A stretch of 64,000 bases of DNA from Candidatus Omnitrophota bacterium (lineage in GTDB: Bacteria; Omnitrophota; Gorgyraeia; Duberdicusellales; 4484-171), in assembly GCA_041652815.1 (NCBI GenBank), contig JBAZGN010000001.1, positions 182,315 to 246,314 of the forward strand. Direction: 5' to 3'. The position numbers were made by a program, and so were the translations under genes. Shown one piece after another: positions 1 to 54,658 of the stretch (position 1 is its first letter; the number at the start of each line of letters is the position of its first letter). Under the pieces are notes generated by a model. The model searched no databases and was not told the origin of the DNA. It saw only the letters and a list, made by a program, of their open reading frames with translations.

Positions 1-3000
1 TAACCTTTGAGGCTATGGTTAAAGAGCCGGTGGTATCAATATTGATATTTGCTGTACCGCTATAACCCCAGCTATCCACGCCTTCTAATCCGAAATTCTT
101 TACTGAATAACCCCACGTACCCGGGTCGATAAGAGTTAAATTGCCCTGATTTTTAATATTAATGTTGTAACTGTTAACTGAAGTGTCGCTCACTCTTGCG
201 GCAAGTTGGGAAACCTGGGTTTCCAAAGCATCTTCGCCCCATAAAGGATGCGAGCCAATTCCTAATGCTGAATCAAGAATTAATTTATTCGCCACTACAT
301 TCATTGCCGCGGCGTTATTATCAACGATTCTCCTATATTTACTGATAAGGGTGGCTGTGCCGGTTCCGGCATTAACATATCCAAGGCGTATATCGCCCCA
401 GGCAGTTAAATTAACGTCTCCGTTATTGGTTAAAATCTGCGCGCTACCGGATTGAACTATATTGCCATAAGCGTCTAAATCATTATAACCGCCTAATAAG
501 GTTATGGTTTTGCCGGCGAGAAGAGTTTGAATAGTTGTGCCGGTATTCTGAACGATGTCGTCTCCGGCGCTAAGAGTAATGTTTCCGTTGTTTGAGGTAA
601 TATTCGCATTGATGGTTAACCTATCCGCCAATGCAGGATAATCAGCAGTTTCTCCGGCGCTAAGGTTAATATCGCCGCTGGCAATCACATTAGCATTCAC
701 AGTTAATGGTGAAGCCGTTGAAATATTTACTGCGCCGTTTAAAGCATGAATCGCATAACCCCACGCAGCAGGATCAACAAGACTCAAATCGCCCGTATTA
801 TTAATTTCTATATTTCCGTTTGTGGTTTGTGCGGATAAGTTGGAAACTTCTGTTTCAAGGGGATTACCTGTACCGATGCCATCTTGAGCGGAAAGAATAA
901 GACTGGTAGCAGTGATATTAAGGTTGACAACGGGTGGTCCTGTTGTATCATTGCCGTCAAAAATTGCTCCTGTAGCCCTTAAATCCACCAAAGCGCTTGT
1001 TCCTGTCGCGCTGATATTACCAATATATAAATCTCCGCCTGTAACGTCTACAAAAATATCTCCGTTATTGTTTGAACCGTTAAAATTTAAAGACGAATTA
1101 CCGTTCTGGTTGAAATTAATATTTCCGTTTGTGGTGTTTGCGGTTGTATTTACCGGAAGGCCATTGCTTGTCGTGTTGTCTACATTAATATCTCCGCCGG
1201 CATTATTTAAAGTAATATCGTTTGCGATGGTTTCAATTGCATTGCCTGCGCCGATACCGCTAAGTGCGTTAAGAATAACATTAGCAGCGCTAATATTGTT
1301 TAAACCCCCGTTTAAATCGATAATTGCACCAGCACTAGTAATTAATTTAACTGTGCCGATAGAATCAACCAGGCCAACAGAAATATCTCCTGTAGCGTCT
1401 ACCTCTATATTGCCCGCAGAATTAGTGATTAAGCCCGGGCTGTAAACTGTATTGGCAACAATCTTAAGGTCGCCTGAAGAAGTAGTAATTGTACCGTAAT
1501 TGTTCAAGTTATTGAGTAGATCAAGTACGTTGCCGTTTAAATCCAGGGTCTTGCCTGTTATCACATCTACATTATAAAAAGTTGTGGTGCCATAAAGATT
1601 AGAAGTACCTGTGCCGCCAAAAACAATTGTGCTATGTTTGGGGTCAAACGTGCCGTTGTTGGTCCAGTTACCAGTCACGGTTATAATTTCCCCATCTAAC
1701 GTTGTCAGGGAACTGCCTGGAGTTATAACAATATTATTAAAAGTAAGGTCATCGCCGGAAGCGCCGCTTGCTATGCTGTTGCCGTTAAAAGTAACCGTAC
1801 CGCCGTTGGCATTGAAGGTGGTGCCGTAGCCGTTTAATTGGAAGATGCCGGCGATATTCATATTGCCGGCAGGGGCATTAAGAGCATGGCCAATGGCAAT
1901 GTATAAATTATTAAATGATGGCTCGATAGAACCACTAATAGTGCTAGTGGTGCCGTCACCGTAGAATCTAACGCTTGCATTATTATGGTTAAAAGTACCG
2001 TTTTGAATCCAGTTTCCGGATACCTTTATTTCATTGACAGGGGCAGTAAGGCTGGTGCCCGCACCGATAGTCAAGTCACCGGTGATATCTAAAGTAATTG
2101 TGCTGCCGCCTACACTTAAAGCGCTAGTGCCGGCAGTAATAAGATTATGGAAAGCTTGCGTATAAGGCGTGCCGTTAATCTGCTGACTGCCCGCACCGTT
2201 AAAAATAACCGTACCGCCGTTGGGATTAAAGGTGCCGCCGTTATTGGTCCAGTTACCTGAAATATTAGTATTTGCACCTGCGCTAAAGGTAGCTCCGCTC
2301 TCAATAATTAAACTCTTAGCAGTTACATCATCTCCCGGAGTAAAAGTTTTCCCTGCCCAAATCAACAGGTCGCCGTTTACATTCAAGGGACTGGAAACGC
2401 TATAAATTATATCCGGGTCGGTTAATCCGCCTTTAGCAGCGGCTAAGATTGCGTTGGTAATCGCTCCGGCAGCTTCATGCCTTAAAATTAAAGTTCCGCC
2501 ATAAATATTTAAACCAATTATATCCGCTGCTACGCCGGTAAGAGTTACGGTAGTTCCATGCACAACATTGCCGTCTATATAAACTAAAATAACAGAGCCA
2601 TCAGCATAATTTACATTGGCAAAGCTATAATTACCGTTTGTGGTAATAACAGGACTGCCGATAACGTTTCCGTTTATAACAAGAATTATATTTGCGCCAT
2701 CCGTAATCCGTGTTATGCCCTGGTCAAGATAAACAATACCGGAAATAGCGAAACCAGTTGGCACCGGAATCTGCCAAATAAAGCAAGGATAGCCATTATT
2801 TATGCTGGCATTAATCCCCCAAGTGTTAGTGAAATCCCATCCGGCGTTAGTAAACGTTGATTGGGTTTTCATGTCTGCGGTAGATTTTCCAGTCATGCCT
2901 GATGGATCGCTAGAACCATTACCAGCGCCTCTGGATATACCAGAAACGTCTTTATCCCAGAAATTTGCTGTATAATGAGCGCCGATATCGTTATATCCAA

Positions 3001-5833
3001 CTAAACCGCCAAAATATATTGCGGGGTGACTGGAACTGCCTGATGTACTGGCCGTAGCGCTTATATTACCAGCAAAATAAGATTTTTCGATAGTACCATA
3101 ATTTTGCCCTACTAAACCACCAATATACACGGTGGCATCGCTATCACTACCAGTTGTTGATGCTGTGCCAGACACATTTCCTCTAGCGTAACAGTTAGAA
3201 ATAGTACTGGAAGAGCTGACCTGGCCAACTAAACCACCAACGATAACGGTAACGGGATTATCATGCCCTGTCCTTGCCCACGTGCCAGTCACATTGGTAG
3301 TGGAATAGGATTTAGATATACTGCTTGAATGGCTGATATAACCAGCTAGACTTCCAACATAATTTCTACCTGTTATACTTCCGCCCTCTAAACCGACATT
3401 TTGGATTTGAGCACCATAGAGATAGCCAAAAAGACCAACATAGTCTGAAGAGCGGTTTATATAAAGACCTGTAATTTTGTGATAATCGCCGTCGAGACTG
3501 CCGGTAAAATTATTGGAACTGCTGCCTACCGACTCAAAGCCTTTGTTGCTATCCCAAGTAGAGGTTCCGGAAGCATCTATGTCTTTCGCGAGCTTAAAGT
3601 ATGACGAAAGGTGGCATTTCATTGCCTGTAGACCATAGATATCATATATAAGGTATGGGGTAGCTGAACTGCCAGTTCCGGTAAAGCGGTTAAAAGTGCC
3701 ACCCGGCAGAGTAAAACTGTTGGATACGCTAAAAACAATGGTTGGGTCAGACTGGAAAGTCCCGCTGTTTAAGATAAAATTAGCTACGCTAATCGCGTTA
3801 TTCTGTACAAATGTCGGATTTGAACCGGAATCAGACTCTCTTAAAGTAAGCGTTGCCACTCCGCTTATGGTGCGCAGCATGCAATTTTTTGGGCTCCCCG
3901 AAGAAAGCGCAGAGCTTCTTATGGTAAGATTATTGTTATTCCCAATAATAGAAGAACCAGGCCCCATGCTAAAAACACCCCAGCCGCCGGTATTATGATC
4001 TGCCCAGAAAGTAAGATCGCCGGTCATATTTATAACGGCATTGTCCGCGATATTAATGTCATCGTCATCATACCAGGGGCCGCTATAATTTCCGCTACCC
4101 CAGGTTATTGCATTGTCAAGATTATCTAGATATGCAGATTCGACTTCAGCTGTTCCGCTAACATAAAATGACGCGCCGTGCTCTAAAAGGGTCTTTGCCC
4201 TTAAAATGCCTGTGGCTTCAATGGGCCCCTGGGCTTCAAGAGTAACGGTTCCACTTGATAGAATTGTTCCGGTTATATTTATGCCTTGATTACTGGTTAA
4301 AGAAATGTTTTGAGCGGAAATTTCACCTGCGATTATGATGGTATAAGTGCTGGTAAGAGCAGGGTCGTACGGTAGGGTGGTCGCGAACACAACATTTGCA
4401 GCGTTGTAAGACGGTGGTGCGCGGCCGTTTAAGACGCCGTAAAAACCTAATTGATTAAAAGCATTTATTTCAAATGAACCAGCATCACCTTGTATACTAC
4501 CGGCTGATACATCAATTACCGCTCCGCTTAATACGTCTGTACCGCCGTTTGTTGACTTAACCAATATCTGGCCGCCGTTACCCACGGTAAACGGGCAAGC
4601 TGCACTGGTTACACTATTTGAACCTAAAACAGTTGAGCTCTGGGAAATAAGTTCGACTGACCCGGCTGTTCCACCTTCATATGCGTTTGCTGAAATTAAG
4701 CCATTCTGGAAGAGCATCGCGCTCAATAACGCAACTTGCCCTCCGTCAACTGCTGTGCTCGTTCCATCCGCGGTAATTGAACCGCTATTTATTAAAACTC
4801 CATTATCGGCAGTAACAGCGATAGTTGCCTCGCCTGAAACAGGGTTGCTTACACTAATAGTTCCTTCATTTATAATATTGCTTGTTGCATTAACAATCTT
4901 TATTTCTTTGCTTGCCTCTATAATGCCGGTTGCGGTATTTATAATCGGTGCGCCGCTGGCGGCAAGCTCGATAACTCCGTCGTGCTCGTTTAATGCTTTT
5001 GCCTGGATTACGCCTGAATTATTTATCGCGTAGTCAAAAACCTCATTTAAGACTTTAGCTGTTAGAATAATTTTTCCGCCGTTTGCAGAAATGGTGCCGC
5101 TATTTTTAATTGCGCTATCCATTCTCTGGCCGTCGGGTCCGATGATTTCTGACTGAACGGCTTCATCTATGACTACGGAAATTAAACTATTGTTGTCTAA
5201 GCCAACGGTAATTTTTTCACCGGCAGCCAAAGCAATCGTTCCTAAATTAGCTAAGGCATAAATTTCGCCCTGATTTTCTACTGCCTGGGAAAGAAGACAA
5301 ATGTATCCTCCGGCTTTGTTGGTTGAAAGCATTCCGTTGTTGATGACGTAAGCGTTCTTGCCGGCGACTTTAAAAAATTCATAGTTGCCTTTCATAAAAT
5401 TTTCGTTGGTGATATCAAGAGTTGAGGCAACTAACCCCGCGGCATTAACGTGGCTTCCTGAACCAAATAAAATTCCGTTTGGATTTACTAAAAAGATTTG
5501 CCCGTTTGGTGCGTTGATTGTCCCGAAGATACTGGAAGGGTCGGCTCCGGTTACGCGGTTTAAAGAAATAAAAGACGAATCGCGGTTATAGTTAACTGTC
5601 TTACCTGCGGCAACGTTATAACTGTTCCAATCAATAATGGATTTGTCGCTGCCAATATTTATGTCTACTGTGTTGGGGTTGGTATTGATTATGGCAGCAG
5701 AACCGTCTACGACTGTGCCGCCTTCGGGAAGACTTTGCGAAAAGCAATTCAAAGAGAGTGAAAAAAGAAAAATAGCCAGAAAGGCTATTTTGTAAATACT
5801 GATTTTTTTGCTAAATTTTTTAAACGACTCCAT
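1..5833 (-). CDS. Two-partner-secretion exoprotein TpsA (filamentous haemagglutinin / large adhesin family), 3' end beyond the window
   Basis: The minus-strand frame is open from ATG at 5833-5831 to the window edge; it is missing from the ORF track because its stop lies outside. My own translation of the first ~550 codons gives a signal peptide (MESFKKFSKKISIYKIAFLAIFLFSLSLNCFSQ) followed by a TPS secretion domain (NYNRDSSFISLNRVTGADPSSIFGTINAPNGQIFLVNPNGILFGSGSHVNAAGLVASTLDI), then long G/S/T/N-rich beta-helical repeats. Only one >=60 aa ORF is listed on the minus strand across 1-5833, consistent with a single uninterrupted frame. Confidence 0.75.
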   Translation of the reverse strand, partial: MESFKKFSKKISIYKIAFLAIFLFSLSLNCFSQSLPEGGTVVDGSAAIINTNPNTVDINIGSDKSIIDWNSYNVAAGKTVNYNRDSSFISLNRVTGADPSSIFGTINAPNGQIFLVNPNGILFGSGSHVNAAGLVASTLDITNENFMKGNYEFFKVAGKNAYVINNGMLSTNKAGGYICLLSQAVENQGEIYALANLGTIALAAGEKITVGLDNNSLISVVIDEAVQSEIIGPDGQRMDSAIKNSGTISANGGKIILTAKVLNEVFDYAINNSGVIQAKALNEHDGVIELAASGAPIINTATGIIEASKEIKIVNATSNIINEGTISVSNPVSGEATIAVTADNGVLINSGSITADGTSTAVDGGQVALLSAMLFQNGLISANAYEGGTAGSVELISQSSTVLGSNSVTSAACPFTVGNGGQILVKSTNGGTDVLSGAVIDVSAGSIQGDAGSFEINAFNQLGFYGVLNGRAPPSYNAANVVFATTLPYDPALTSTYTIIIAGEISAQNISLTSNQGINITGTILSSGTVTLEAQGPIEATGILRAKTLLEHGASFYVSGTAEVESAYLDNLDNAITWGSGNYSGPWYDDDDINIADNAVINMTGDLTFWADHNTGGWGVFSMGPGSSIIGNNNNLTIRSSALSSGSPKNCMLRTISGVATLTLRESDSGSNPTFVQNNAISVANFILNSGTFQSDPTIVFSVSNSFTLPGGTFNRFTGTGSSATPYLIYDIYGLQAMKCHLSSYFKLAKDIDASGTSTWDSNKGFESVGSSSNNFTGSLDGDYHKITGLYINRSSDYVGLFGYLYGAQIQNVGLEGGSITGRNYVGSLAGYISHSSSISKSYSTTNVTGTWARTGHDNPVTVIVGGLVGQVSSSSTISNCYARGNVSGTASTTGSDSDATVYIGGLVGQNYGTIEKSYFAGNISATASTSGSSSHPAIYFGGLVGYNDIGAHYTANFWDKDVSGISRGAGNGSSDPSGMTGKSTADMKTQSTFTNAGWDFTNTWGINASINNGYPCFIWQIPVPTGFAISGIVYLDQGITRITDGANIILVINGNVIGSPVITTNGNYSFANVNYADGSVILVYIDGNVVHGTTVTLTGVAADIIGLNIYGGTLILRHEAAGAITNAILAAAKGGLTDPDIIYSVSSPLNVNGDLLIWAGKTFTPGDDVTAKSLIIESGATFSAGANTNISGNWTNNGGTFNPNGGTVIFNGAGSQQINGTPYTQAFHNLITAGTSALSVGGSTITLDITGDLTIGAGTSLTAPVNEIKVSGNWIQNGTFNHNNASVRFYGDGTTSTISGSIEPSFNNLYIAIGHALNAPAGNMNIAGIFQLNGYGTTFNANGGTVTFNGNSIASGASGDDLTFNNIVITPGSSLTTLDGEIITVTGNWTNNGTFDPKHSTIVFGGTGTSNLYGTTTFYNVDVITGKTLDLNGNVLDLLNNLNNYGTITTSSGDLKIVANTVYSPGLITNSAGNIEVDATGDISVGLVDSIGTVKLITSAGAIIDLNGGLNNISAANVILNALSGIGAGNAIETIANDITLNNAGGDINVDNTTSNGLPVNTTANTTNGNINFNQNGNSSLNFNGSNNNGDIFVDVTGGDLYIGNISATGTSALVDLRATGAIFDGNDTTGPPVVNLNITATSLILSAQDGIGTGNPLETEVSNLSAQTTNGNIEINNTGDLSLVDPAAWGYAIHALNGAVNISTASPLTVNANVIASGDINLSAGETADYPALADRLTINANITSNNGNITLSAGDDIVQNTGTTIQTLLAGKTITLLGGYNDLDAYGNIVQSGSAQILTNNGDVNLTAWGDIRLGYVNAGTGTATLISKYRRIVDNNAAAMNVVANKLILDSALGIGSHPLWGEDALETQVSQLAARVSDTSVNSYNINIKNQGNLTLIDPGTWGYSVKNFGLEGVDSWGYSGTANINIDTTGSLTIASKV

Positions 5834-6025
5834 TCTACCCCGTGGATTTCGTGGATTTACTGATATTGTAACCGTTTTCAAATGTTCTTAAGATATAGCA
5901 TTTTAATCAAAGAATGTCAAGTCGAAAATTTAAGATTTTTGTAACTTACTAAGGTGCAGTAACTTATGAAGTAGGAATTTATGTGCGTTTAATTCAAAGG
6001 CTCTTTACCCCTTGCGCCCAGATAT

Positions 6026-6066
6026 CGTGTGAATTTTCTCGGCCTGCGGCCAGGAAAATTCACACG
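6026..6066 (-). promoter_or_regulatory. Perfect 13-bp stem / 15-nt loop hairpin in the tpsB-tpsA intergenic region
   Basis: cgtgtgaattttc-[tcggcctgcggccag]-gaaaattcacacg; the loop itself contains the palindrome ggcctgcggcc. No U-tract follows on either strand. Confidence 0.5.
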
Positions 6067-6085
6067 AAGCGCTGCGGGGTTAATT

Positions 6086-6128
6086 CACACTATTATTTTT
6101 TCGGTGTGCACGCCGAAAAAATAATGTG
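6086..6128 (-). promoter_or_regulatory. Second imperfect hairpin immediately 3' of the tpsB stop
   Basis: cacactattattttttcgg-tgtgcac-gccgaaaaaataatgtg. The arms are complementary apart from a 2-nt bulge; the element sits 5 nt downstream of the tpsB stop codon. Confidence 0.4.
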
Positions 6129-6132
6129 CTCA

Positions 6133-7842
6133 TTAAAACCGCCAGCTGAACTCAACCCAAGGATGCGCACGGTTGCCATCCGAAGGAAGCTTGCCGAGCG
6201 GATAACCCATTTCAAATTTCAAAGATAAATCTTTTACGTTAAATCTTACGCCGTATCCCCAACCGCGAAGAGTGTCGCTCTTTTCTTCTCCGGCCTGAGG
6301 GTTGTTAAGGCGGCTGTTCGCCCAGTCATAAAAACAGACCAGCCTTACGGCATCATAAAGCCGGCTTCCGGTTGTAGGCACCATTATGCCTTTAGGCAAA
6401 CCATACACGGGAAACGACCACTCCGCAGAAGAATATATTCCCTTATCTCCCGCAAATTCACCCGGGCCGTAACCACGCACGCTTTGCGCGCCGCCGATTT
6501 GAAACTGCTCTGCCGCGGCTAAATTATAATTGGAAAGCTGCGCGGAATTTTTTAATAAAAGGGATGAAGAAAAAGGCATTGGCTGCAACCTGTAGAAGTT
6601 AAAAACTCCTTTAACGAACTGGCCGCCGGCACCAACGCGCGATGCCTTGGAGTCTTTCGCGGTTAAGCCGCCCCACATACGCGGTATGCCTACGTCTATT
6701 TCAGGAGTAATAATCGTTCTGCCAAACTTATCCGTAATATCAATGTCCAGGCCATTTTTGATAACCCGCATTTCGTCACGGGAAGATTCTGCGCCGGAAA
6801 GATAGTTTTTAATATCTTTATAATCAAAGCCGAAATTATATCGTAAATCAAGTATCCTGTTTTCAAATACGGCCCGGTTTACGAATATACCGGCGATATT
6901 GGCCTTGCCTACGGCACTTAAAGCGCGAAATTCCTTTCCCAGCACCAAACGGCTATAAGAATAATAACCGCCGATTTCTGTTTTTTCGTTTACCGGATAG
7001 ATATATCTTACGTTTTTTAAGCTATAAAGGCTTTTTTGCGACATTTGATATTTAAGGTACAACTTGTCATCAAATCCCAATAAATTATTATTTTCATAAA
7101 CAAATGCCCATCGGTTTTTTTCCATATAGCGGGAACCGAAATTATCATAGTCAAAACCTATATGTATGGGGAGCCTATCCTTTACCTCTATTACTATGTC
7201 GGTTGTGCCGGGCTCAACACCGGGGACTAAAATGGCTTTCGCCATTCTGTCGGGGTTTTCATTTATATAGGTAAGAGAATTTTGGAGGATATCGTAATCG
7301 AAGTAATCTTTCGGTTTAAGTTTAATTTTTTTTTCCAACAAAGATGTGCGGAAGTAGCGGTTTCCTTTAATATCGATTTTACCCACTTTGCCTTCAATAA
7401 TTTTTATTGTCAGAATACCGTCTTTAATGGTCTGCGGCGGAAGATAGGCGCGGGAAGTGGTATAACCTTTCTTTCTATAGCTTTCGGTTATTTTATCGGC
7501 AATCTTCTGCATTTCAGAAAGAGCCAGGTCTTTGCCTTCATATCCGGAAACTATACCTTTTAACTCCTTCTCTGAAAGCAAGGTAGCGCCTTCAACGACT
7601 ATTTTCTTTATCTGGACTTTTTTGGTATCTGCAGGCAGAGGCGCTTCCTTAACGGGTTCTTCTTTAATTTCCGGCTTTTTCTTTTTCGTTTGAATTTGCT
7701 GCTCGATTGCCTTTTGCTCTTCAAGGGCTCTGTCACGCTGTTCAGTAGCTCCTATTGTCTGCGACGGCGGCACTGTTTGGGCAAATGCGCCAAAAGATAA
7801 GATAATTATAGCAGTAAAAATTGAAGCGATTTTTAAGTTCAT
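6133..7842 (-). CDS. TpsB outer-membrane transporter of two-partner secretion (ShlB/FhaC/HecB family: POTRA + beta-barrel)
   Basis: 569 aa with a signal peptide (MNLKIASIFTAIIILSFGAFAQ), a K/E-rich linker and POTRA-like region, and a C-terminal barrel ending in an aromatic (WRF). It lies immediately upstream of the TpsA gene on the same strand. Confidence 0.75.
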   Translation of the reverse strand: MNLKIASIFTAIIILSFGAFAQTVPPSQTIGATEQRDRALEEQKAIEQQIQTKKKKPEIKEEPVKEAPLPADTKKVQIKKIVVEGATLLSEKELKGIVSGYEGKDLALSEMQKIADKITESYRKKGYTTSRAYLPPQTIKDGILTIKIIEGKVGKIDIKGNRYFRTSLLEKKIKLKPKDYFDYDILQNSLTYINENPDRMAKAILVPGVEPGTTDIVIEVKDRLPIHIGFDYDNFGSRYMEKNRWAFVYENNNLLGFDDKLYLKYQMSQKSLYSLKNVRYIYPVNEKTEIGGYYSYSRLVLGKEFRALSAVGKANIAGIFVNRAVFENRILDLRYNFGFDYKDIKNYLSGAESSRDEMRVIKNGLDIDITDKFGRTIITPEIDVGIPRMWGGLTAKDSKASRVGAGGQFVKGVFNFYRLQPMPFSSSLLLKNSAQLSNYNLAAAEQFQIGGAQSVRGYGPGEFAGDKGIYSSAEWSFPVYGLPKGIMVPTTGSRLYDAVRLVCFYDWANSRLNNPQAGEEKSDTLRGWGYGVRFNVKDLSLKFEMGYPLGKLPSDGNRAHPWVEFSWRF

Positions 7843-8023
7843 TTTCCCTCTCCTTTCTTATGCTGAGCTTTATTTTATGATTGGGCTTATTCTATAGTCA
7901 GGCAAAGACAATGTCAATATAATTTTTCCCTGCTCCTGAAAACTATTCCGTACACCGCAAAAGCGCAAAATGGCCGCAAGAACGCAAAACGCATGCTAAA
8001 AATTACCTGCTACAAGAAAAATA

Positions 8024-9184
8024 TTGACTATTGCATCGCTCTGCTTTATTGTAAATACAATGGAAGAAAAATTTGCCATAGCGTCCAGCGAAAAGAGAGG
8101 CGAAGAAGCTGCCAAAGAGCTTTCTTTAAAAATAAAGTCCGTTTTTCCTAAGGCCGTCAAGGACATATTTTTATTTTTTACGCCTCAATATAACCCGCAC
8201 GAAGCCTTAAAAACTATAAATTTTACTTTAAAGCCCCGGAAGATAATTGGCCTGCAAAGCCCGTTTCTTAATTTTGAAGACCGGATACTGGAAGAAGGCA
8301 TGGTTGCTTTTGCCATAAATAAAGAGAATACAGAGTTTACGGAAGTTTTTATAAAAGAAGATTCGACGCAAAAAATAGAATCAGAGCTTCGGATGTTTTT
8401 GAAAAAATATTCCCATGAAAAAGAAGTTATTTTTTCTTTCTTATCGCATAATTTTAATTATCGTAATTACCTGCGCGGGCTGGAGCTTGCAATAGGAAAA
8501 TCTTTTAACGTCTTTGGGGGAGGCTACATTAGAAAATATGCCACGAAGAATTATCAGATAGTAAATAATACGGTAACCGAAGGCCTGGTTAACATAATCG
8601 GCGGCGGCATACAAGAAACATCGTTAAGCATCGCCGGGTTTATCCCTTTGGGCAAGCCTTTTACAATCACAAAAGTTATGGCGCAAGAAAGCATAATAAT
8701 GGAAATAAACGGCAGGCCGGCCATAAATATATACAGGGATTATCTGGAAGATAAATTCAATACTTTCATAAAAAATTATCTTTTCTCGCTATATCCGCTT
8801 GGCGTCTATTATAATGACGATATACATTTAATAAACGTTATCGAATGTTTAAAAGACGGCTCTCTCGCCTGCATTGGGAATCTTAAGGAAGGCGTAAAGG
8901 GGCATATAATGTTTTTCCATCCACAAGCCCTGCTTGATGAGCTTAAGAAAAAACTTGGATTCATAAAGAGCCATGGAGAAGGTTTGGTATTTATGGTAAA
9001 CTCTATGTTGAGAAAGCGGGTATTGCGGGAATACGCATACGAAGAGAGCCGCGTTATCAAGCAGCTGCTCGGGGATAAATTCAAAATAATAGGCATATAT
9101 GCTGATTACTCTTTTTTCTCTGAAGCAGAGAGAAGAGAAATAAACCTTGAAGCCGGAAACATATTAATGACGTTATGGAAATGA
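8024..9184 (+). CDS. Putative FIST-type sensory domain protein (FIST_N + FIST_C); true start probably ATG at 8060
   Basis: About 375 aa, cytoplasmic, with no catalytic motifs. Conserved-looking blocks (FFTPQYNPHEAL...IIGLQSP, NVFGGGYI, GIYADYSF) resemble FIST sensors. It overlaps the downstream histidine kinase gene by 10 nt, an arrangement common for FIST-HK pairs. The 8024 start is a TTG; the MEEKFAIASS methionine at 8060 is the more plausible start. Confidence 0.45.
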   Translation: MTIASLCFIVNTMEEKFAIASSEKRGEEAAKELSLKIKSVFPKAVKDIFLFFTPQYNPHEALKTINFTLKPRKIIGLQSPFLNFEDRILEEGMVAFAINKENTEFTEVFIKEDSTQKIESELRMFLKKYSHEKEVIFSFLSHNFNYRNYLRGLELAIGKSFNVFGGGYIRKYATKNYQIVNNTVTEGLVNIIGGGIQETSLSIAGFIPLGKPFTITKVMAQESIIMEINGRPAINIYRDYLEDKFNTFIKNYLFSLYPLGVYYNDDIHLINVIECLKDGSLACIGNLKEGVKGHIMFFHPQALLDELKKKLGFIKSHGEGLVFMVNSMLRKRVLREYAYEESRVIKQLLGDKFKIIGIYADYSFFSEAERREINLEAGNILMTLWK

Positions 9185-10653
9185 ACACAACATTATCCTC
9201 TATGGGGCCCATTATAGGTTCGGCGATTTTTCTATGTTTCGTGATAGTTTTTCTTGTTATTTATATTATAAATAAGCTGCAATTTATAAATATCCTCAAA
9301 AGAAATATCGAACACCTTAATAAAACAATCCGGGAGCTTGATTATCAGGCAAAACTAATAATCAAGGGCGATATGGAGCTGAAGCTCTACCAGGAAGAAG
9401 TGGAAGATAAACTCAACAAGCTTACTCTTCTTAAAAATCTCATAATATCTTCACTGCACATTCTGGATAAAGAAAACCTTTTTTCGCAAGTAGACGATAA
9501 AACGATAAATGACCTGGGTTTTAAAAAGGGCCTGATACTCACAATGGAAGGCGAGGTAAAATTAAGTGTCGGCTTTGAACCCAAGGAAATAGATGCACTA
9601 AAAGATTTCGTAAAATATAAAAAGAACTTCATCCAGGCCATACCATTAATTTCATCCGATACCGAAGCCGGTGCGGAATTGATAACTACCCTTCAAACAA
9701 AAGATTTTCTAATCGCTCCGATAAAAGCGCGGGAGAAAATATATGCCGTGTTTGTTTTGGCCAACCTGGTTATGCCAACGGATGTCAGGCGCGCGGAAAA
9801 AGAAATTTTTTCAATTATCTGTATGTATCTTGGCCAGTGCCTCGACAACATTCAGCTTTTTGAAGAAATCTATAATGCAAAAGATGAGCTTGAGAAGAAA
9901 GTAAAAGAAAGAACCAATGAATTAGTTAAGAGCTTACGCGAGATAGAAGCAATTAGCCGGGCAAAATCGGATTTTATCTCCGGCGTATCGCATGAATTGC
10001 GCACCCCTCTTACTTCAGTAAAAGGTTTCTCTTCGCTCTTGGTTGCTGAAAAATTCGGAAAGCTCCCTGAAGAAGCCAAGAAGCGCCTTGAGACAATAGA
10101 TGAAAATGTTGATAAGCTTGTAAATATGGTCAATACTCTTTTGGACATCGCGCGTATCGAATCGGGGAAAACAGAAGTAAAAATAGCTCCTGCCGATATC
10201 GCAAAATCAATCAGGGATGCGGGCGAATTCCTCTCCCCTCAAATGCAGGCAAAAGCAATAAAATTAGTTTTGGATACACCGGAGACACTTTTGGTCTACA
10301 TGGATAAAAACCTTATTGACCAGGTATTTATAAACCTGCTTGGAAATGCCATTAAATTCACGCCCAACGGCGGGCAGATAAAAATAAGTGTTAAGGCAAC
10401 CGGCAATCAAGCTGTTGTTGCCGTAGCAGATACAGGCTATGGAATAGAGAAAGAAAATTTGGAAAAGATTTTTCAGGAATTCTTTAGGGCAGATAATGCA
10501 GTAAATGCTATGGCAAAAGGAACGGGGCTTGGCCTATCTCTTGTAAAAAGAATTATCGAAATACACAAAGAAAAAATATGGGTCGAATCAGAAATTGGAA
10601 AAGGCAGCACCTTTTATTTCACGCTTAAATTGGCGAAGGAAAAGAACATTTAA
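9175..10653 (+). CDS. Sensor histidine kinase (N-terminal TM helix, coiled coil, GAF-like region, HisKA, HATPase_c)
   Basis: H-box SHELRTPLTSVKGF, N-box LLGNAIKFTP, G-boxes DTGYGI and GTGLGLSLVKRIIE, and an N-terminal hydrophobic helix. Confidence 0.85.
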   Translation: MEMNTTLSSMGPIIGSAIFLCFVIVFLVIYIINKLQFINILKRNIEHLNKTIRELDYQAKLIIKGDMELKLYQEEVEDKLNKLTLLKNLIISSLHILDKENLFSQVDDKTINDLGFKKGLILTMEGEVKLSVGFEPKEIDALKDFVKYKKNFIQAIPLISSDTEAGAELITTLQTKDFLIAPIKAREKIYAVFVLANLVMPTDVRRAEKEIFSIICMYLGQCLDNIQLFEEIYNAKDELEKKVKERTNELVKSLREIEAISRAKSDFISGVSHELRTPLTSVKGFSSLLVAEKFGKLPEEAKKRLETIDENVDKLVNMVNTLLDIARIESGKTEVKIAPADIAKSIRDAGEFLSPQMQAKAIKLVLDTPETLLVYMDKNLIDQVFINLLGNAIKFTPNGGQIKISVKATGNQAVVAVADTGYGIEKENLEKIFQEFFRADNAVNAMAKGTGLGLSLVKRIIEIHKEKIWVESEIGKGSTFYFTLKLAKEKNI

Positions 10654-10724
10654 AATGGAAAAGGTTAAGGTTGAGGTTAAGCTATAATATACTCTTGACC
10701 TCAACCTTAACCTGAGTTTATATT

Positions 10725-11663
10725 ATGGTTAAATTAAAAATAATGGTCGTTGACGACGACCCTGATATTTTGGAACTTCTCAAGGCAACCCTGGAAGAAG
10801 AATACGAAGTTATCAGTGCCGCCCTTGGCAACGAAGCTATAGAAAAATTAAAAAGCCAGGTGCCTGACCTATTGGTTTTAGATTATATGCTTCCTGACAT
10901 TCAGGGGCCGCAAATATGTAATATTTTAAGAAAAGACCCGCTGCTTGTGCATTTGCCCGTGCTGATGCTGACCGGCAAAGGAGAAATCGAAGATAAGGTA
11001 AAAGGGCTTGAGTCAGGTGTTGATGATTATATGGTAAAGCCTTTTTCACCGCAGGAGCTTACTGCGAGAGTGCGAATGCTTATACGGCGGTCGAATATCA
11101 ATTTAGACGCAAACCCTTTAACGCGGCTTCCCGGAAACGTTTCAATAAACCGCGAACTGGATGAAAAGATAAAAAGCAAAGAAAAGTTTGCCGCGCTTTA
11201 TATCGATTTGGATAACTTCAAAGCGGTAAATGACTACTACGGCTTTGAAAGAGGCGACGAGGTAATAAAAGAAACCGCCCGCATTTTAATCGATGCCATT
11301 TCAAAAGAAGGCACCACAAAAGATTTCATCGGCCATATCGGCGGAGATGATTTCTTTATCATAACCTCTCCGGAAAAGGGCGAAGAAATAGCAAAAAAAA
11401 TAATAAGTGATTTCGATAAAGTATCTCCCAAATTTTTTGATGAAAAAGACAGGATAAAAGGCTTTATCGAAACAAAGGGGCGTGACAACGAAATACATAA
11501 ATTCGGATTTATTACTATCTCTGTGGGAATAATAACCAACTTATACAGAGAGTTCACGCATACCGCACAAATAAGCTCGCTCGGAGCAGAAGTTAAGGGG
11601 TTTGCCAAAAAATTCGCTCAAAGTAAATATATTTTCGACAAAAGAACCGAGCAGAAATACTGA
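10725..11663 (+). CDS. Response regulator: REC domain fused to a GGDEF-family domain with non-canonical GGDDF signature
   Basis: REC motifs (MVVDDDPDILELL, phospho-acceptor in LVLDYMLPD, MLTGKG, KPF). GGDEF-domain motifs are NPLTRLPGN, DLDNFKAVNDYYG, RGDEVIK, then GGDDF where GG(D/E)EF is expected. Confidence 0.8.
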   Translation: MVKLKIMVVDDDPDILELLKATLEEEYEVISAALGNEAIEKLKSQVPDLLVLDYMLPDIQGPQICNILRKDPLLVHLPVLMLTGKGEIEDKVKGLESGVDDYMVKPFSPQELTARVRMLIRRSNINLDANPLTRLPGNVSINRELDEKIKSKEKFAALYIDLDNFKAVNDYYGFERGDEVIKETARILIDAISKEGTTKDFIGHIGGDDFFIITSPEKGEEIAKKIISDFDKVSPKFFDEKDRIKGFIETKGRDNEIHKFGFITISVGIITNLYREFTHTAQISSLGAEVKGFAKKFAQSKYIFDKRTEQKY

Positions 11664-11754: not shown

Positions 11755-12525
11755 TTGTATGATATATATAATCTTCCTAAAAATAAACATAGTATGCCAA
11801 AATTAGAAGTTAACGATAATTTTTTCAAAAATTGGTCACCAGATATGGCTTATGTTTTAGGTTTGATTACCGCTGATGGATGCCTCATAAAACATAAAAA
11901 TGGCCATAGGAGTTTGGATATTACTTTAAAAGATAAAAGATTACTGGAAGATATTAAAAAACTATTAAATTCCGAGCACAAAATAGGTAAAAAAACCAGA
12001 GGATACCGTCTACAAATTAAAAACAAAACTTTGTATAATGATCTTTATAGCTTAGGGCTAACTCCAAGAAAATCTAAAACTATTAGGTTCCCTGCCGTAC
12101 CTCCGAAATATCTTTCTGATTTTGTACGAGGTTATTTTGACGGTGATGGCAGCGTTTGCGTATGGAAAGAAAAACGCTGGAAAAATAGTTTACAAATCAG
12201 AACAACTTTTGTTTGCGGGAGCTTACCTTTTTTAAAATCATTAAAAACCAATCTCTCTGAATATGGCGAACTAGATAAAGGTAAAATATGGGGAGGAAAC
12301 AAAAACAACAGAGCGGCTTATGAGCTTCATTACGGGATAAATGATAGCTTAAGATTGTTTAATTTTATATATAAACCTCAAAGCTTTCCCTATTTAAACC
12401 GAAAAAAACAAAAGTTTGAGTTCTTTATAAAATCAAAAAATAATTTTCCATCTGCGAGAGTGGCGGTCAACAACCTTTGCCAAAGGCAAAGCTTCTTTAA
12501 TGTTGTTGCCCGCATAAGCTATTAA
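11755..12525 (+). CDS. LAGLIDADG-family homing endonuclease, free-standing (two-motif, single-chain type)
   Basis: Two LAGLIDADG motifs at the expected spacing (LGLITADGCL and VRGYFDGDGSV). The protein is basic with a K/R-rich C-terminal half. The true start may be the internal Met of MPKLEVNDN. Confidence 0.8.
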   Translation: MYDIYNLPKNKHSMPKLEVNDNFFKNWSPDMAYVLGLITADGCLIKHKNGHRSLDITLKDKRLLEDIKKLLNSEHKIGKKTRGYRLQIKNKTLYNDLYSLGLTPRKSKTIRFPAVPPKYLSDFVRGYFDGDGSVCVWKEKRWKNSLQIRTTFVCGSLPFLKSLKTNLSEYGELDKGKIWGGNKNNRAAYELHYGINDSLRLFNFIYKPQSFPYLNRKKQKFEFFIKSKNNFPSARVAVNNLCQRQSFFNVVARISY

Positions 12526-12581
12526 ACTAAATAAATTTCTTGTAGAAGCAAAAAGTTTTTGACCAAACTGAAAACTATGTA

Positions 12582-12665
12582 GCGAGAGTGGCGGAATTGG
12601 CAGACGCATTAGCTTGAGGGGCTAACGGTAGCAATACTGTAGGGGTTCAACTCCCCTCTCTCGCA
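12582..12665 (+). tRNA. tRNA-Leu (anticodon GAG), type II with long variable arm
   Basis: Folded by hand. Acceptor stem gcgagag/ctctcgc with discriminator A. Anticodon stem ttagc/gctaa with loop ttGAGgg (U33, G37). Variable-arm hairpin cggta-gcaa-tactg. T stem agggg/cccct with loop ttcaact. CCA is not encoded. Confidence 0.85.
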
Positions 12666-12764: not shown

Positions 12765-13406
12765 CTACTGCAAGTTTACTCTTTCCAAAAGCTTCAATCT
12801 ATAGGTAAGATAAGTTAGCTGGCAAGAAAAATCCACATCCTTAAGGATAATGTCTTGCGGCAAAGCAAGTTTTACCGGTGCAAAATTTAAAATGGCGCGT
12901 ATTCCGCATCGATATAAATTATCTGAAATTTCTTTTGCATTTTCTTTTGGTACCGTTATTATCGCAATTCGGATATTTTCTTTCTTTATTATATTCTGAA
13001 GCTTCTCAAGGCCGTAAATTTTTATTCCGTTATAAGTTTTGTTTTGTTTATTTTTATCAACATCAAAGGCAGCCTTTATGCATATACCCTGGTCGCGAAA
13101 ACCTTTATAAAAGGAAAGGGCTCTGCCTAAATTGCCGAAACCCACAACGCAAACATTCCACTGCTGATTTAAACCGAGTATCTCTTTTATCCGGTCAATA
13201 AGCTCAAGGCAGGAATATCCCACGCCCTTTTTGCCGAAATGCCCGAAATAGGAAAGGTCTTTTCTTAATTGATGATGGCTTATTTTAAGAAAATCGGCGA
13301 GCTGGCGGCTTGATACTACTTTTTTCTTTTCTTCAAGAAAATAAATAAGGGCGCGCAGGTAATAAGATAGGCGTATGATGGTTTCTTCGGGAATTTTTTT
13401 GTCCAT
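12765..13406 (-). CDS. rex: Redox-sensing transcriptional repressor Rex (winged helix + NAD(H)-binding Rossmann domain)
   Basis: N-terminal IPEETIIRLSYYLRAL...SSRQLADFLKISHHQLRKDLSYFG. GxGxxG Rossmann motif VVGFGNLGRAL. The most plausible start is MDKKIPEE at 13406; the ORF-track extension to 13457 translates the upstream repeat element. Confidence 0.8.
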   Translation of the reverse strand: MDKKIPEETIIRLSYYLRALIYFLEEKKKVVSSRQLADFLKISHHQLRKDLSYFGHFGKKGVGYSCLELIDRIKEILGLNQQWNVCVVGFGNLGRALSFYKGFRDQGICIKAAFDVDKNKQNKTYNGIKIYGLEKLQNIIKKENIRIAIITVPKENAKEISDNLYRCGIRAILNFAPVKLALPQDIILKDVDFSCQLTYLTYRLKLLERVNLQ

Positions 13407-13410
13407 TGAT

Positions 13411-13575
13411 TTATTAAATAACCAATAACCAAGATACAAGATACAAACAATATTCAAATTCCAATAACCAATGACCGAACGGAAACATTGATTTTTGTTT
13501 GATTATTGAGATTTGGTTATTGGTCATTGTTTGGTTATTGTATCTTGGAGCTTGGTTATTTCTCCAGCTATTTTA
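13411..13575. repeat. Copy A of a ~150-bp palindromic 'ggttattg/caataacc' intergenic repeat family
   Basis: aataaccaataaccaagatacaagatacaaacaat ... attgtttggttattgtatcttggagcttggttatttctccagctat. The last ~45 nt are identical to copy C (32.2 kb). It lies between the hypE stop and the rex start. Confidence 0.7.
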
Positions 13576-13590
13576 ATTATTTATGGGTTG

Positions 13591-14601
13591 TTAGCATATG
13601 CGGGGCAAGTTAAACGAGTGTGAGAAATCAAGGATTCGCTCTCCTCCGGAAACTGTTTCAAGCACGACACCTTTTACGTTATCATCTATCTCTCCTATTA
13701 TTGATGCGGATTTGGAGGTTTTCTTTAAAAAATTTAAAACTTTCCTTGAAATTTTATCCGGCACAATAAGAACCGCTCTTCCTTCGCAGGCAAGATAATA
13801 AGGGTCTATTCCTAATATTTCGCAGGCAGCTTTCACGTCGCGCCGAACCGGTATATTTTCTTCGAAAATTCTTATTCCTTTTTTGCTTCCTAAATAGATT
13901 TCATTTAAAACGCTCGCGATTCCTCCCCGCGTTGGGTCACGCATAAAATTAATTTGCGGGAATTTCATCCATAGTGAAGTAACCAGCTTTTTTAAACTCT
14001 GACAATCGCTTTTTATGTTAAATTCGAAAATCTTTTTACGGCTGAGCATAACGCTTATTCCGTGCTCGCCGATTGAACCTGTAACAATTATCTTATCTTT
14101 ATTTTTTATATTTTTAAAAGAGGGGTTGGCATTCTGTATTTTTTCCCCTATGCCTGATGTGCTTATAAAAATTTTGTCTGCTTTTCCACGTTCAACCACT
14201 TTAAAGTCTCCGCTTACTATATCAACCTTAGATATGCGGGAGGCCAGATTTATTGAATTTACTATTCTTATAAGGTCGGATTTTAAAAACCCCTCTTCGA
14301 CAATCATGGCTAAACTTAAATATTTAGGGATTCCTCCACTAACACAAATATCGTTTACTGTGCCGAAGACGGAAAGTTTACCTATGTCGGAACCGGGGAA
14401 AAATATAGGGTCTACAGTAAAAGAGTCACAGCTATAAACAAATTTTCCTATGGTTGCTGCATCTGTTAACTGCGCAAGGATAGGATTAGAAAGTTTCTTT
14501 AGGAAAACTTCTCTAATTAAATTGTAGCTCGCTTTCGTGCCTTCGCCGTGTTTTAGGGTTATAATTTCTTCGTTCATAATATTTATAAGTAGAAGGAGCA
14601 A
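13591..14601 (-). CDS. hypE: [NiFe]-hydrogenase maturation factor HypE
   Basis: PurM/AIR-synthase-like fold. The C-terminus ends in PRIC, the HypE carbamoyl/cyano-carrying cysteine motif. Confidence 0.85.
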   Translation of the reverse strand: MLLLLINIMNEEIITLKHGEGTKASYNLIREVFLKKLSNPILAQLTDAATIGKFVYSCDSFTVDPIFFPGSDIGKLSVFGTVNDICVSGGIPKYLSLAMIVEEGFLKSDLIRIVNSINLASRISKVDIVSGDFKVVERGKADKIFISTSGIGEKIQNANPSFKNIKNKDKIIVTGSIGEHGISVMLSRKKIFEFNIKSDCQSLKKLVTSLWMKFPQINFMRDPTRGGIASVLNEIYLGSKKGIRIFEENIPVRRDVKAACEILGIDPYYLACEGRAVLIVPDKISRKVLNFLKKTSKSASIIGEIDDNVKGVVLETVSGGERILDFSHSFNLPRIC

Positions 14602-14612
14602 CTAATTGATCC

Positions 14613-14683
14613 TAGATGCCAGATGCTGGATGCTCGTTGTCCTTGTTTTTTACGAGTATCAAGCATCTAGCATCAAGCATCTA
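14613..14683. repeat. Intergenic dyad element built from 'agatgc' words
   Basis: tagatgccagatgctggatgctcg - ttgtccttgttttttacgag - tatcaagcatctagcatcaagcatcta. Confidence 0.5.
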
Positions 14684-14686
14684 TAT

Positions 14687-15355
14687 TTAAACCTCTCTTC
14701 CTTTTACTCTTTTAAGGGCCTCCACAGAAACCCCTATATCCGCCACATATATTTTACCACAAAGCTTTGGCCCATCATTTAACAAAAATCCTTTTTTCGG
14801 GGCGATAAAAGTGATTGTATAGTCTGCTTTTACTGCCTCTCCTAATATAACTCCGCTATCCGGGGACAACCCCGAAGGAATATCGCAGGAAATTATTTTC
14901 TTTCCGCTTTTATTTATATCGCGGATTATTTTTTTAAGGAAAGTAGAAAGCTCGCCCTTTGTACCTATTCCCAATATACCGTCTAAAATAAAATCAGAGG
15001 CTTTGAGGTATTTTTTAAATTCTTCTACGTTAGCCGGGTCAATTACGTATACAGGGATTTTTATTTTATCTAAAAGTTCTTTCTGAAATTTTACCTCCGC
15101 ATTAAAATCTTTTTCTTTCAAAACTACAGCGTAAACTTCGTAATTTTTGGCGGCGAGCTTTCTTGCACAGGCAAGCGTATCCGCGCCATTATTTCCTCTA
15201 CCCGCAACCACACATACGCTTTTACCCAGCTTCAAATTATCTATTATAGCCGCTAGATTGCTGGAAGCATTTTCGATAAGAAGCCTTTCGTTAAGGCCAA
15301 TCTTTTTGGCAGCTTCTTCCAAATGCCTTATTTTTTTTACAGAAAGCCCTTCCAT
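14687..15355 (-). CDS. NAD(P)H-hydrate epimerase, YjeF N-terminal domain protein
   Basis: VCVVAGRGNNGADTLACARKL matches the YjeF_N GxGNNGGDG motif. No C-terminal kinase (dehydratase) domain is present. Confidence 0.65.
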   Translation of the reverse strand: MEGLSVKKIRHLEEAAKKIGLNERLLIENASSNLAAIIDNLKLGKSVCVVAGRGNNGADTLACARKLAAKNYEVYAVVLKEKDFNAEVKFQKELLDKIKIPVYVIDPANVEEFKKYLKASDFILDGILGIGTKGELSTFLKKIIRDINKSGKKIISCDIPSGLSPDSGVILGEAVKADYTITFIAPKKGFLLNDGPKLCGKIYVADIGVSVEALKRVKGREV

Positions 15356-18329: not shown

Positions 18330-18680
18330 CTGTAATATATTATCACAGAGGGTTAAAAAGGCAAAGTGGGGTGTTGGAAATTGGTTGGTGAAGTTAATTA
18401 CCCCTCGCGCCTGAATATCGTATAAATTTTCCACGCTTGTTTCACAAGCAGGAAAATTTATACGAAGCGCTTCGGGGGTGTTTTTTTGCTGCCCGAAGGA
18501 CAGCAAAAAAACACCCTGCCATCAGTCCGTCTCAGGCTTGCTGCATACAGTCCGTTTCTCATACAAGTGGGTGCTTCATCCTATTCGCCTCAGCGAAAGG
18601 AAATTCAGCTCCCGTGTATTAGGTGTTGGCTGTAGCACTTTAACCTGTTGACGCAACAGGCAGGGTTAATTTTCCCTTTC
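18330..18680. ncRNA. GC-rich, highly structured non-coding island (candidate small RNA or leader; identity unknown)
   Basis: 490 bp without a credible ORF in an otherwise densely coding, AT-rich context. Nested perfect hairpins: aaccctctgtaatatattatcacagagggtt; cgtataaattttcc-[acgcttgtttcacaagcag]-ggaaaatttatacg; mutually exclusive cttcggg/cccgaag versus gggtgtttttttgctg/cagcaaaaaaacaccc. On the minus strand, the segment from ccctgcctg to caggg (~150 nt) closes on itself. Confidence 0.35.
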
Positions 18681-45033: not shown

Positions 45034-45034
45034 G

Positions 45035-46867: not shown

Positions 46868-46924
46868 ATTTTTTAATTATCTAAAATTATAGCAAGCAAT
46901 CTCAAGCTTTGGTTGTTAAAACCC

Positions 46925-47773
46925 TTAAAAGAAAGACTCTGGAACAGAGATTATATCATTTTCTTTTAATTCCACATCCCTTGATTTATCACCGCTTTTA
47001 AGAATATGCGCAATAGGCACATTAAATGTTTCTTTTTTGTCTTGGCCAGGTGCTCTTCTTATCACTTTAACTGCATTCTGATCTGCAATGTCAGTGAACC
47101 CCCCAGCTAAAGCTATGGCTTCAATGGCCGTCAAACCTTTACTATACTTGTAACTCCCAGGCTTTCGTACCTGGCCTAAGACTGCTATGTCACCATATCC
47201 TTTCACAATTATTCTATCCAAGGGTTGTAATAAAAAATCTCTACCATGTTTGTTAAAATCTACTATATATTCTTTCTCTTCATTGCCAACTTTACGTATA
47301 ATCTTTATGTTTGTCAAATTGGCATTTTGCTTTGCGCCATCGGCAAGCGCTAAGGCTTCCAAAAGAGATAAGTTGCCTATTAATTCATAGCTGCCTTCGC
47401 TGTTTATTGCTCCGATAATAAAAAATTTAGCATATTCTTTTATAAAAATATTTACTTGCGGATTAACAAAATAATCTTTCTTGAGAAGATTTTCTATTTT
47501 AGCAGTTGCCTCTTTTGTGGTTAAATTTCCAATAATAATCTCTCCTATAAATGGATAAATTATCTTTCCTTCCTCGGACACCTTAACCGTTTTAGTCAAA
47601 TTGGGCTCTCCGTATACTGAAATTTCGATGGTATCCCCAGGCTTTATACGATAAACATAATTACCATCTTCCGAGGCAACAGCCTGCTTATCAACTTCTT
47701 TATTTGCCTGAGGATAAGCCATAAAAATGATAATAGAAAAAGTTATTAATAGAAATATTTTTTTTATCATCAA
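46925..47773 (-). CDS. Polysaccharide export protein (Wza-like, Poly_export + SLBB domains)
   Basis: Signal peptide; YRIKPGDTIEISVYGEPNL is the Poly_export motif; tandem SLBB-like repeats. Confidence 0.7.
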   Translation of the reverse strand: MMIKKIFLLITFSIIIFMAYPQANKEVDKQAVASEDGNYVYRIKPGDTIEISVYGEPNLTKTVKVSEEGKIIYPFIGEIIIGNLTTKEATAKIENLLKKDYFVNPQVNIFIKEYAKFFIIGAINSEGSYELIGNLSLLEALALADGAKQNANLTNIKIIRKVGNEEKEYIVDFNKHGRDFLLQPLDRIIVKGYGDIAVLGQVRKPGSYKYSKGLTAIEAIALAGGFTDIADQNAVKVIRRAPGQDKKETFNVPIAHILKSGDKSRDVELKENDIISVPESFF

Positions 47774-49398: not shown

Positions 49399-49414
49399 GT
49401 TTGCATTATATTGA

Positions 49415-51702: not shown

Positions 51703-51902
51703 TAATATTACTATATCATTGTTTTGTCTAGTGTCAATATAAAGAGTCTCGTTAAGCGAAATATTTATAATACTACTTACGGTAATTGGTTTTTTGTGCT
51801 TCTATGTTTAAAAATGAGTTTTATCTAAGGTAATCAAACAAAGATAAAATACAGTAACGATAACTATTCTTAAGTGCTTGTGTTCCAATATGTTATAATT
51901 CA

Positions 51903-51931: not shown

Positions 51932-51949
51932 TAAAAGGGAGGGAGTAAC

Positions 51950-52174: not shown

Positions 52175-52181
52175 ATAATTA

Positions 52182-53498: not shown

Positions 53499-53504
53499 AT
53501 GATG

Positions 53505-54641: not shown

Positions 54642-54658
54642 TGATTACGGAAATTTTT

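Follow-up and report, generated by a model that had tools for sequence, protein, structure and literature searches.

We report that the left end of a 64,000-nucleotide stretch of DNA from a Candidatus Omnitrophota bacterium (assembly GCA_041652815.1, contig JBAZGN010000001.1, positions 182,315 to 246,314; hereafter the window) carries a pair of genes, tpsB and tpsA, with the features of a two-partner secretion (TPS) system. In our estimate, the probability is roughly 0.7 that the product of tpsA is a TPS-secreted, non-enzymatic adhesin fiber with a beta-helical fold. The gene pair, its domains and motifs, the continuity of the reading frame and a predicted all-beta fold come directly from the analysis. 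Both genes lie on one strand, with tpsB upstream and a gap of 299 nt between them:

2-5833, minus strand: 5' part of tpsA, encoding the first 1,944 of at least 4,741 amino acids (aa); the gene exits the window at its left edge.
6133-7842, minus strand: tpsB, encoding an Omp85-family TpsB transporter of 569 aa, with POTRA_2, ShlB and Omp85 profile matches.

A preliminary description of this DNA, made from its sequence alone, had claimed that the first 5.8 kb of the window, seemingly non-coding, is in fact one uninterrupted minus-strand frame. This is indeed the case. The frame is open from 5887 to 2, which amounts to 1,962 codons with zero stops and no frameshift, and the remaining two minus frames contain 224 and 155 stops over 1-8000. 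It is missing from the listing of open reading frames (ORFs) only because it runs off the window edge, and an open frame of about 5.9 kb in DNA of 43% G+C cannot be a product of chance. Its first ATG is at 5833, with GGGGTAGA just before, and yields 1,944 aa within the window; an independent gene call on an ENA metagenome contig (k141_1862847, our locus L001) uses this start too. Plus-strand ORFs within tpsA, such as 912-1445, overlap this conserved coding frame and were taken as spurious.

The ENA contig was found by an exact look-up of the TpsB sequence. It is 26,028 bp long; of 17,000 positions compared, 6 differ between it and the window, and these all fall in window 13047-14870, while the TPS locus itself is identical. 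On L001, the tpsA frame is open across all 3,233 readable codons, and the gene call gives a product of 4,741 aa that is still open at the contig edge (at least 14.2 kb). Hence, TpsA is at least 4,741 aa long, since the called product ends only where the contig does; the giant, truncated TpsA of more than 1,940 aa in the window that was described earlier is real. The leftward extension that had been proposed as a check thus keeps the frame open (3,233 aa readable, 4,741 aa called), although the stop codon is not reached. With the locus identical in an independent assembly and 9.7 kb free of stops, an assembly artifact or a pseudogene is ruled out.

The rest of the gene was sought in several ways. 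An exact 45-mer from the end of L001 has no match in the genome contigs, residues 2834-3233, used in a protein-guided scan, turned up no relative among the genome contigs or the metagenome contigs, and the full TpsA itself was never among the matches of homolog searches with TpsA segments. A fragment that is 59% identical to TpsA (P0121) stops 66 aa beyond the readable end. In an independent assembly from the same lineage (L002), the contig terminates 275 bp past tpsB, and a related strain's contig (L008) begins inside the FIST gene, before the TPS locus. Since contigs break at the borders of the TPS locus in L002 and L008, such genes are probably under-counted in metagenome-assembled genomes (MAGs). 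Fragmentation of short-read assemblies by tpsA repeats or by strain variation fits these breaks.

The TpsB barrel gene was correctly placed directly upstream of tpsA. Its product, which NCBI names 'hemolysin activation/secretion protein' (MCK9613900.1 / MFA5304189.1), matches the profiles of POTRA_2 (E=4.9e-23, 81 bits), of the ShlB/FhaC/HecB barrel (E=1.6e-24, 87 bits) and of Omp85 (E=7.6e-8, 33 bits), and aligns end to end with the solved structures of CdiB (6wim, E=9.4e-20) and FhaC (4ql0, E=1.9e-10). TpsB is laid out as a signal peptide, a Lys/Glu-rich linker, POTRA domains and a predicted beta-barrel, and it has the L6 motif VRGY at residue 455. The window also contains lipopolysaccharide (LPS) and outer-membrane genes, namely a GT9 heptosyltransferase, O-antigen-ligase-like genes and a beta-barrel porin, which supports a diderm envelope for the host. 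The defining features of type Vb secretion have been reviewed (PMC5422565), and the TpsA/TpsB pair carries them; its sequence supports the assignment of the locus as a type Vb (two-partner) secretion pair made up of a ShlB/FhaC-type TpsB and a giant TpsA.

Two elements expected at the start of a TpsA, a signal peptide and a TPS domain, had also been claimed for this protein, and both are present:

5738-5833, minus strand: Sec-type signal peptide of TpsA, about residues 1-32, MESFKKFSKKISIYKIAFLAIFLFSLSLNCFS followed by QS; from translation and hydropathy.
4952-5737, minus strand: TPS (secretion) domain, residues 33-294; from PF05860, TIGR01901 and PDB sequence matches.

The signal peptide has a Lys-rich N-terminus followed by residues 13-31, the sole strongly hydrophobic segment of the protein (hydropathy 1.88, the protein maximum). 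The translation and the hydropathy profile point to cleavage at a small-residue site, between CFS and QS. The signal peptide has no ESPR extension, and the hydropathy profile of TpsA contains no transmembrane-like segment after it. Residues 33-294 match the Pfam TPS family PF05860 (E=1.8e-30, 107 bits versus a cut-off of 33.5) and TIGR01901 adhes_NPXG (E=4.6e-19, 68 bits versus a cut-off of 29.1), and the NPNGI motif occupies residues 117-121 (window 5471-5485). Among solved structures, a PDB sequence search places the TPS domain nearest to EtpA (8cpk/8vba, E about 1e-38), HxuA (4i84, 7e-26) and HMW1 (2odl, 5e-20), and not to filamentous hemagglutinin (FHA) or CdiA.

To characterize the passenger, motif and family scans were run over the readable residues 1-3233, with the Pfam threshold relaxed to E<=1. 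Only three families appear in this span: TPS, GLUG and a sub-threshold Peptidase_M26_N. There are no Fil_haemagg (PF05594/PF13332) repeats, no SecA or dockerin match, no MBG, YDG or ESPR domains, no Peptidase_M26_C, and no PT-VENN, pretoxin, toxin, CdiA-type, nuclease or enzyme family or motif; neither HExxH nor HxxEH occurs anywhere. The term 'FHA-like' in the preliminary description therefore holds in the generic TPS sense, but not more narrowly, given the absence of Fil_haemagg repeats and a TPS domain closest to EtpA, HxuA and HMW1. The protein is charge-poor, with G, N, I, S, A and T at 9-12% each, K+R at 3% and only 8 Cys, a composition typical of beta-solenoids. Internal repeats were not seen in a BLAST self-comparison and were detected by a window-score dot-plot, above the shuffled maximum. 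Past the TPS domain, two regions of the passenger were delimited within the window:

2804-3796, minus strand: GLUG-repeat beta-helix module, about residues 680-1010; from Pfam Glug, an AlphaFold 2 (AF2) model and Foldseek.
2-2446, minus strand: distal passenger in the window, residues 1130-1944, with degenerate beta-solenoid repeats; from self-comparison and AF2.

The Pfam Glug match has E=2.6e-10, and GLUG repeats of about 38 aa each lie at residues 816-960 in the self-comparison against a shuffled control. The AF2 model of residues 600-1130 has a mean predicted local distance difference test (pLDDT) score of 76.6, with the GLUG part mostly above 90. In Foldseek, this model matches 3n6z (a Bacteroides 'putative IgA1 protease') with E=4.7e-9, followed by the beta-helix domain at the N-terminus of IgA1 proteases from streptococci and Gemella (7uvl, 7uvk, 7jgj). 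As modeled, the module thus looks like the non-catalytic domain with which M26 IgA1 proteases begin.

This resemblance raises the question of whether TpsA could be a secreted enzyme, either an IgA1-protease-like peptidase or a polysaccharide-degrading beta-helix enzyme, acting against the envelopes of host or prey. The GLUG and weak Peptidase_M26_N matches and the structural match to IgA1-protease N-domains speak for such a role, as do the beta-helices common in pectate lyases and tailspikes, which are present as low-ranking Foldseek matches; moreover, a role in degrading prey surfaces has been proposed for giant proteins of Omnitrophota (PMC10066038; bioRxiv 10.1101/2023.11.21.568195). However, the matched region is the non-catalytic N-domain, Peptidase_M26_N scores 18.5 bits against a cut-off of 27.7, and the Foldseek matches to enzyme folds have probabilities of 0.09 or less. 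Neither metallopeptidase-type motif (HExxH or HxxEH), nor M26_C, nor any lyase or hydrolase family was found in the scanned residues. An enzymatic role is disfavored because catalytic motifs and domains are absent, and we regard it as quite improbable.

Beyond the GLUG module, the passenger consists of degenerate repeats of several kinds. 'SGNWTNNGTF' units of about 115-138 aa occur at residues 1175-1420 (window 1573-2311), a 'GIG..ALETxVxxLxA..I.I.N.G.L..D..WGY' module recurs at about 1513, 1639, 1850, 1990 and 2477, and units of about 85 aa occur at residues 2920-3233 in the same self-comparison against a shuffled control. The AF2 model of residues 1130-1944 (pLDDT 79) consists of beta structure throughout, having about 85 short strands but not a single helix.

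Relatives of this protein were then compared. The N-terminal 1,944 aa of TpsA have more than 1,300 homologs, the best of which are from Omnitrophota, with 40-55% identity over the first quarter to third of the query; their further domains vary and include Laminin_G_3, GLUG, MBG, beta-helix and transglutaminase. At the related loci, tpsB (567-572 aa) adjoins tpsA, and complete TpsA proteins have 1,313-2,596 aa. The order is tpsB-tpsA in three of these loci (L003, L006 and L007) and reversed, A then B, in L005; between the L003 pair and that of the window, TpsB is 48% and the TPS domain 44% identical. Judged by sequence, tpsB-tpsA pairs of this kind are common among Omnitrophota and have mosaic passengers.

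Some of these loci have peculiarities of their own. The L003 TpsA (P0002, L003 10001-15724, complete, 1,907 aa) seems to have a second TPS-like stretch at its C-terminus: residues 34-518 of our TpsA align to its residues 62-495 and again to 1401-1870, the latter with 40% identity. L006 (5706-16719) has a single tpsB with two tpsA genes in tandem (1,313 and 1,514 aa) after it and, before it, an ORF of 129 aa that is POTRA-only. The L007 pair has, upstream, a FecR gene, a CHASE2-cyclase gene and a second gene of the ShlB type.

The regions of the passenger differ in how widely they are shared. The GLUG module (about 330 aa) has 35-45% identity with dozens of TpsA-like proteins from Proteobacteria that are labeled 'GLUG motif-containing' or 'MBG domain'; these labels, like the similar YDG ones, are automatic NCBI names. 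An exhaustive HMMER scan with residues 1130-1944 returned 835 cluster representatives at E<=1e-3, many of them of 4,000-7,700 aa. The 13 representatives that were fetched fall into two groups: TpsA-like proteins with the 'ALETxV' module, such as P0154 (4,779 aa) and P0157 (3,093 aa), both TPS-bearing, and unrelated giant surface proteins that have only the 'GNWTNNGTF' repeat in common. Residues 1900-3233, on the other hand, have ten homologs only. The 'SGNWTNNGTF' repeat also occurs in giant surface proteins of 2,900-7,400 aa that gave no match to a TPS domain, and some of these appear to end in type IX secretion system (T9SS)-like or cadherin-like tails, their ends having been read by eye. 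From these sequences, the repeat looks like a widely exchanged solenoid module, as its distribution suggests.

The C-terminal effector with a toxin and an immunity gene that had been suggested for this locus would make TpsA a CdiA-like protein, in which a beta-helix presents a polymorphic C-terminal toxin and the immunity gene lies downstream, outside the window. Several observations are compatible with this. The gene is still open at aa 4,741, with its C-terminus unseen; CdiB is the best solved match of TpsB; and the distal passenger, with its few homologs, is fast-evolving, as is usual for polymorphic systems. Against it, the TPS domain is closest to EtpA, HxuA and HMW1 rather than CdiA, and the scanned residues contain neither FHA-1/FHA-2 repeats nor PT-VENN/DUF638. 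Furthermore, Pfam finds no toxin domain in the C-terminal 300 aa of four relatives with the mid-passenger module. Related Omnitrophota loci with a complete TpsA show no toxin domain and no obvious small downstream ORF of the immunity type, their passengers bearing Laminin_G_3, GLUG or MBG-type domains instead. We thus consider toxin delivery unlikely. Apart from the likeness of TpsB to CdiB, nothing speaks positively for it; the suggestion is unsupported rather than refuted, because the true C-terminus lies past aa 4,741.

An adhesin fiber finds its closest counterparts in EtpBA of enterotoxigenic E. coli and in HMW1B/HMW1 and HxuB/HxuA of Haemophilus influenzae. Like the locus described here, these are pairs of a ShlB-type TpsB and a TpsA that contains an NPNG motif, builds its beta-helical passenger from repeats and lacks a toxin domain (here, within the 3,233 readable aa). 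TpsA is, however, at least three times longer than the 1,564-aa chain of EtpA (8vba), its passenger repeats are unrelated in sequence to theirs past about residue 450, and it contains a GLUG module. The hosts also differ, being proteobacterial pathogens in those cases and an environmental member of the Omnitrophota in this one. On the tpsB side there is no glycosyltransferase gene of the EtpC/HMW1C type, the next genes encoding FIST, histidine kinase and REC-GGDEF proteins. FhaC/FhaB of Bordetella pertussis has in common with our pair the TPS architecture and a very long beta-helical fiber, which is predicted here; unlike FhaB, TpsA has no Fil_haemagg repeats in the residues scanned, and its TPS domain belongs to a different subgroup. 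The GLUG beta-helix module is in turn common to TpsA, the M26 IgA1 protease N-domain (3n6z, 7uvk, 6xja) and the GLUG/MBG/YDG TpsA-like proteins. IgA1 proteases, however, are Gram-positive, LPXTG- or membrane-anchored zinc peptidases, whereas in TpsA the module lies inside a TPS passenger with no peptidase domain.

From these features we infer secretion, fiber length, adhesion and the existence of a target to be bound, along the lines of the reviewed mechanism of TPS secretion (PMC5422565). TpsA would be exported by Sec over the inner membrane via the signal peptide at its N-terminus. In the periplasm, its TPS domain, still unfolded, would be bound by the TpsB POTRA domains, and the TpsA chain would thread through the 16-stranded TpsB barrel. 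Outside the cell, it would fold, TPS domain first, into a very long right-handed beta-helical fiber. In order, the fiber would comprise the TPS cap, a short shaft, the module resembling GLUG and IgA1-protease N-domains, a small segment like a beta-sandwich, and a stretch of degenerate solenoid repeats that exceeds 2,000 aa. Held at the surface or released, it would bind surfaces, matrix or other cells. FHA rises by about 50 nm per about 2,000 aa. If TpsA has an FHA-like rise per residue, its fiber would be at least roughly 100 nm long, which is about half the width of an Omnitrophota cell (about 0.2 um; PMC10066038).

Two stretches of non-coding DNA flank tpsB and may bear on its expression:

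5834-6132, minus strand: tpsB-tpsA spacer, 299 nt, with two perfect inverted repeats; from sequence and RNA fold.
7843-8023, no strand assigned: divergent promoter region between tpsB and a FIST/histidine-kinase/REC-GGDEF operon, 181 bp; from a promoter scan.

The inverted repeats of the spacer are 12 bp at 6093-6124, 9 nt past the tpsB stop, and 13 bp at 6026-6066. The RNA fold of the spacer has an energy of -82.2 kcal/mol, compared to -58.8 +/- 5.0 for shuffled sequences (z=-4.66), and neither hairpin has a U-tract after it. The hairpins could act as an attenuator, or as a processing or stabilizing element that sets the tpsB:tpsA ratio. In the divergent region, the minus strand has a sigma-70-like site, TTGACA-17-TAGAAT, at 7917-7889 (11 of 12 consensus positions, a consensus match only), with an AAGGAG box between it and the tpsB ATG. 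The divergent operon (8024-11663, plus strand) encodes a FIST sensor, a HisKA/HATPase kinase and a REC-GGDEF response regulator whose active-site motif reads GGDDF, not GG[D/E]EF.

This neighborhood suggests a more specific role for TpsA, namely that of a biofilm matrix adhesin like CdrA of Pseudomonas, controlled by cyclic diguanylate (c-di-GMP) and switched by the divergent FIST, kinase and REC-GGDEF proteins. The three regulatory genes lie directly upstream and have the 181-bp promoter region in common with tpsB, and the window contains a second GGDEF gene (HAMP-GGDEF) and an exopolysaccharide cluster. Nevertheless, no genes of the LapG/LapD type were seen, the operon is absent beside the relatives, and the regulator carries GGDDF. 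A CdrA-like system is a sub-case of the adhesin explanation and not a true alternative to it; in this particular form, it is improbable.

Several points weigh against TpsA as an adhesin fiber. First, at least 1,500 aa of the protein, and probably more, lie beyond the readable sequence; these include the whole C-terminus, and because that end is unseen, it could yet carry a catalytic or toxic tip. Second, no binding partner can be inferred, and both secretion and cleavage of the signal peptide rest on prediction from sequence. Third, Foldseek returned no significant match for the model of residues 1130-1944 (best E=1.1), although the non-significant list is made up of type V beta-helical passengers (EtpA, SepA, HxuA, EspP and Pet). 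Finally, the FIST/histidine-kinase/REC-GGDEF neighborhood is absent at all five of the related loci examined; given that the operon is not conserved beside relatives and that its regulator has GGDDF, the link to c-di-GMP and biofilm is only a weak lead.

The Omnitrophota are uncultured, ultra-small and probably host-dependent, and their means of attachment to partner cells, still an open question, have so far been discussed in terms of type IV pili, Tad complexes and enormous transmembrane proteins. The latter, the giant ORFs of the archaeovorin/dockerin kind, exceed 20 kb and have tens of transmembrane helices, SecA-like domains and a link to type II secretion (PMC10066038; bioRxiv 10.1101/2023.11.21.568195). 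TpsA resembles them in being a very large, poorly conserved surface protein of the same phylum with a proposed role in cell-cell attachment, but it has a single signal peptide, a TPS domain, a dedicated TpsB and no further transmembrane segment. The possibility that it is itself a transmembrane-rich giant was accordingly rejected. Our literature search found no paper linking Omnitrophota with two-partner secretion. In the Omnitrophota and giant-protein papers that were checked, including the two cited above, the terms two-partner or TPS are absent, and hemagglutinin is mentioned in passing, for other organisms. A search for GLUG together with TpsA, two-partner secretion or filamentous hemagglutinin gave nothing relevant.

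The locus reveals no new mechanism. Its kind of system is already textbook, and NCBI names the relatives 'filamentous hemagglutinin N-terminal domain-containing protein'; what is modestly new is how large the protein is, which phylum it comes from and that its passenger is a mosaic of GLUG and solenoid parts. What the locus does show is that Omnitrophota have classical type Vb pairs with a cargo of more than 4,700 aa. It offers an experimentally tractable candidate adhesin, and a handle by which many fragments now called 'hypothetical' in MAGs of Omnitrophota can be annotated. A tentative extension, which we consider possible without favoring it, is that TPS-exported beta-helical fibers form a second, undiscussed class of very large Omnitrophota surface proteins, apart from the transmembrane-rich, SecA-type giants. 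In that case, a TpsA fiber of at least 100 nm, comparable in scale to the nanobacterium, would catch and hold host or prey cells, and its mosaic, fast-evolving distal modules would set target specificity.

A few other features of the window were recorded. A free-standing LAGLIDADG_3 ORF of 256 aa (E=9.5e-12) lies directly upstream of tRNA-Leu(GAG) at 12582-12665, the two spanning window 11755-12665 on the plus strand. A match to 6S/SsrS RNA at 18509-18669 on the minus strand scores 47.4 bits, barely over the Rfam gathering score of 46.4. Lastly, a surface-polysaccharide/LPS cluster occupies 43741-60293 on the minus strand; it includes two Wzy_C genes (O-antigen ligase-like), Wzz/GNVR tyrosine-kinase-type and BBP2_2 beta-barrel genes, and genes for a TPR protein, the HAMP-GGDEF protein and the GT9 heptosyltransferase.

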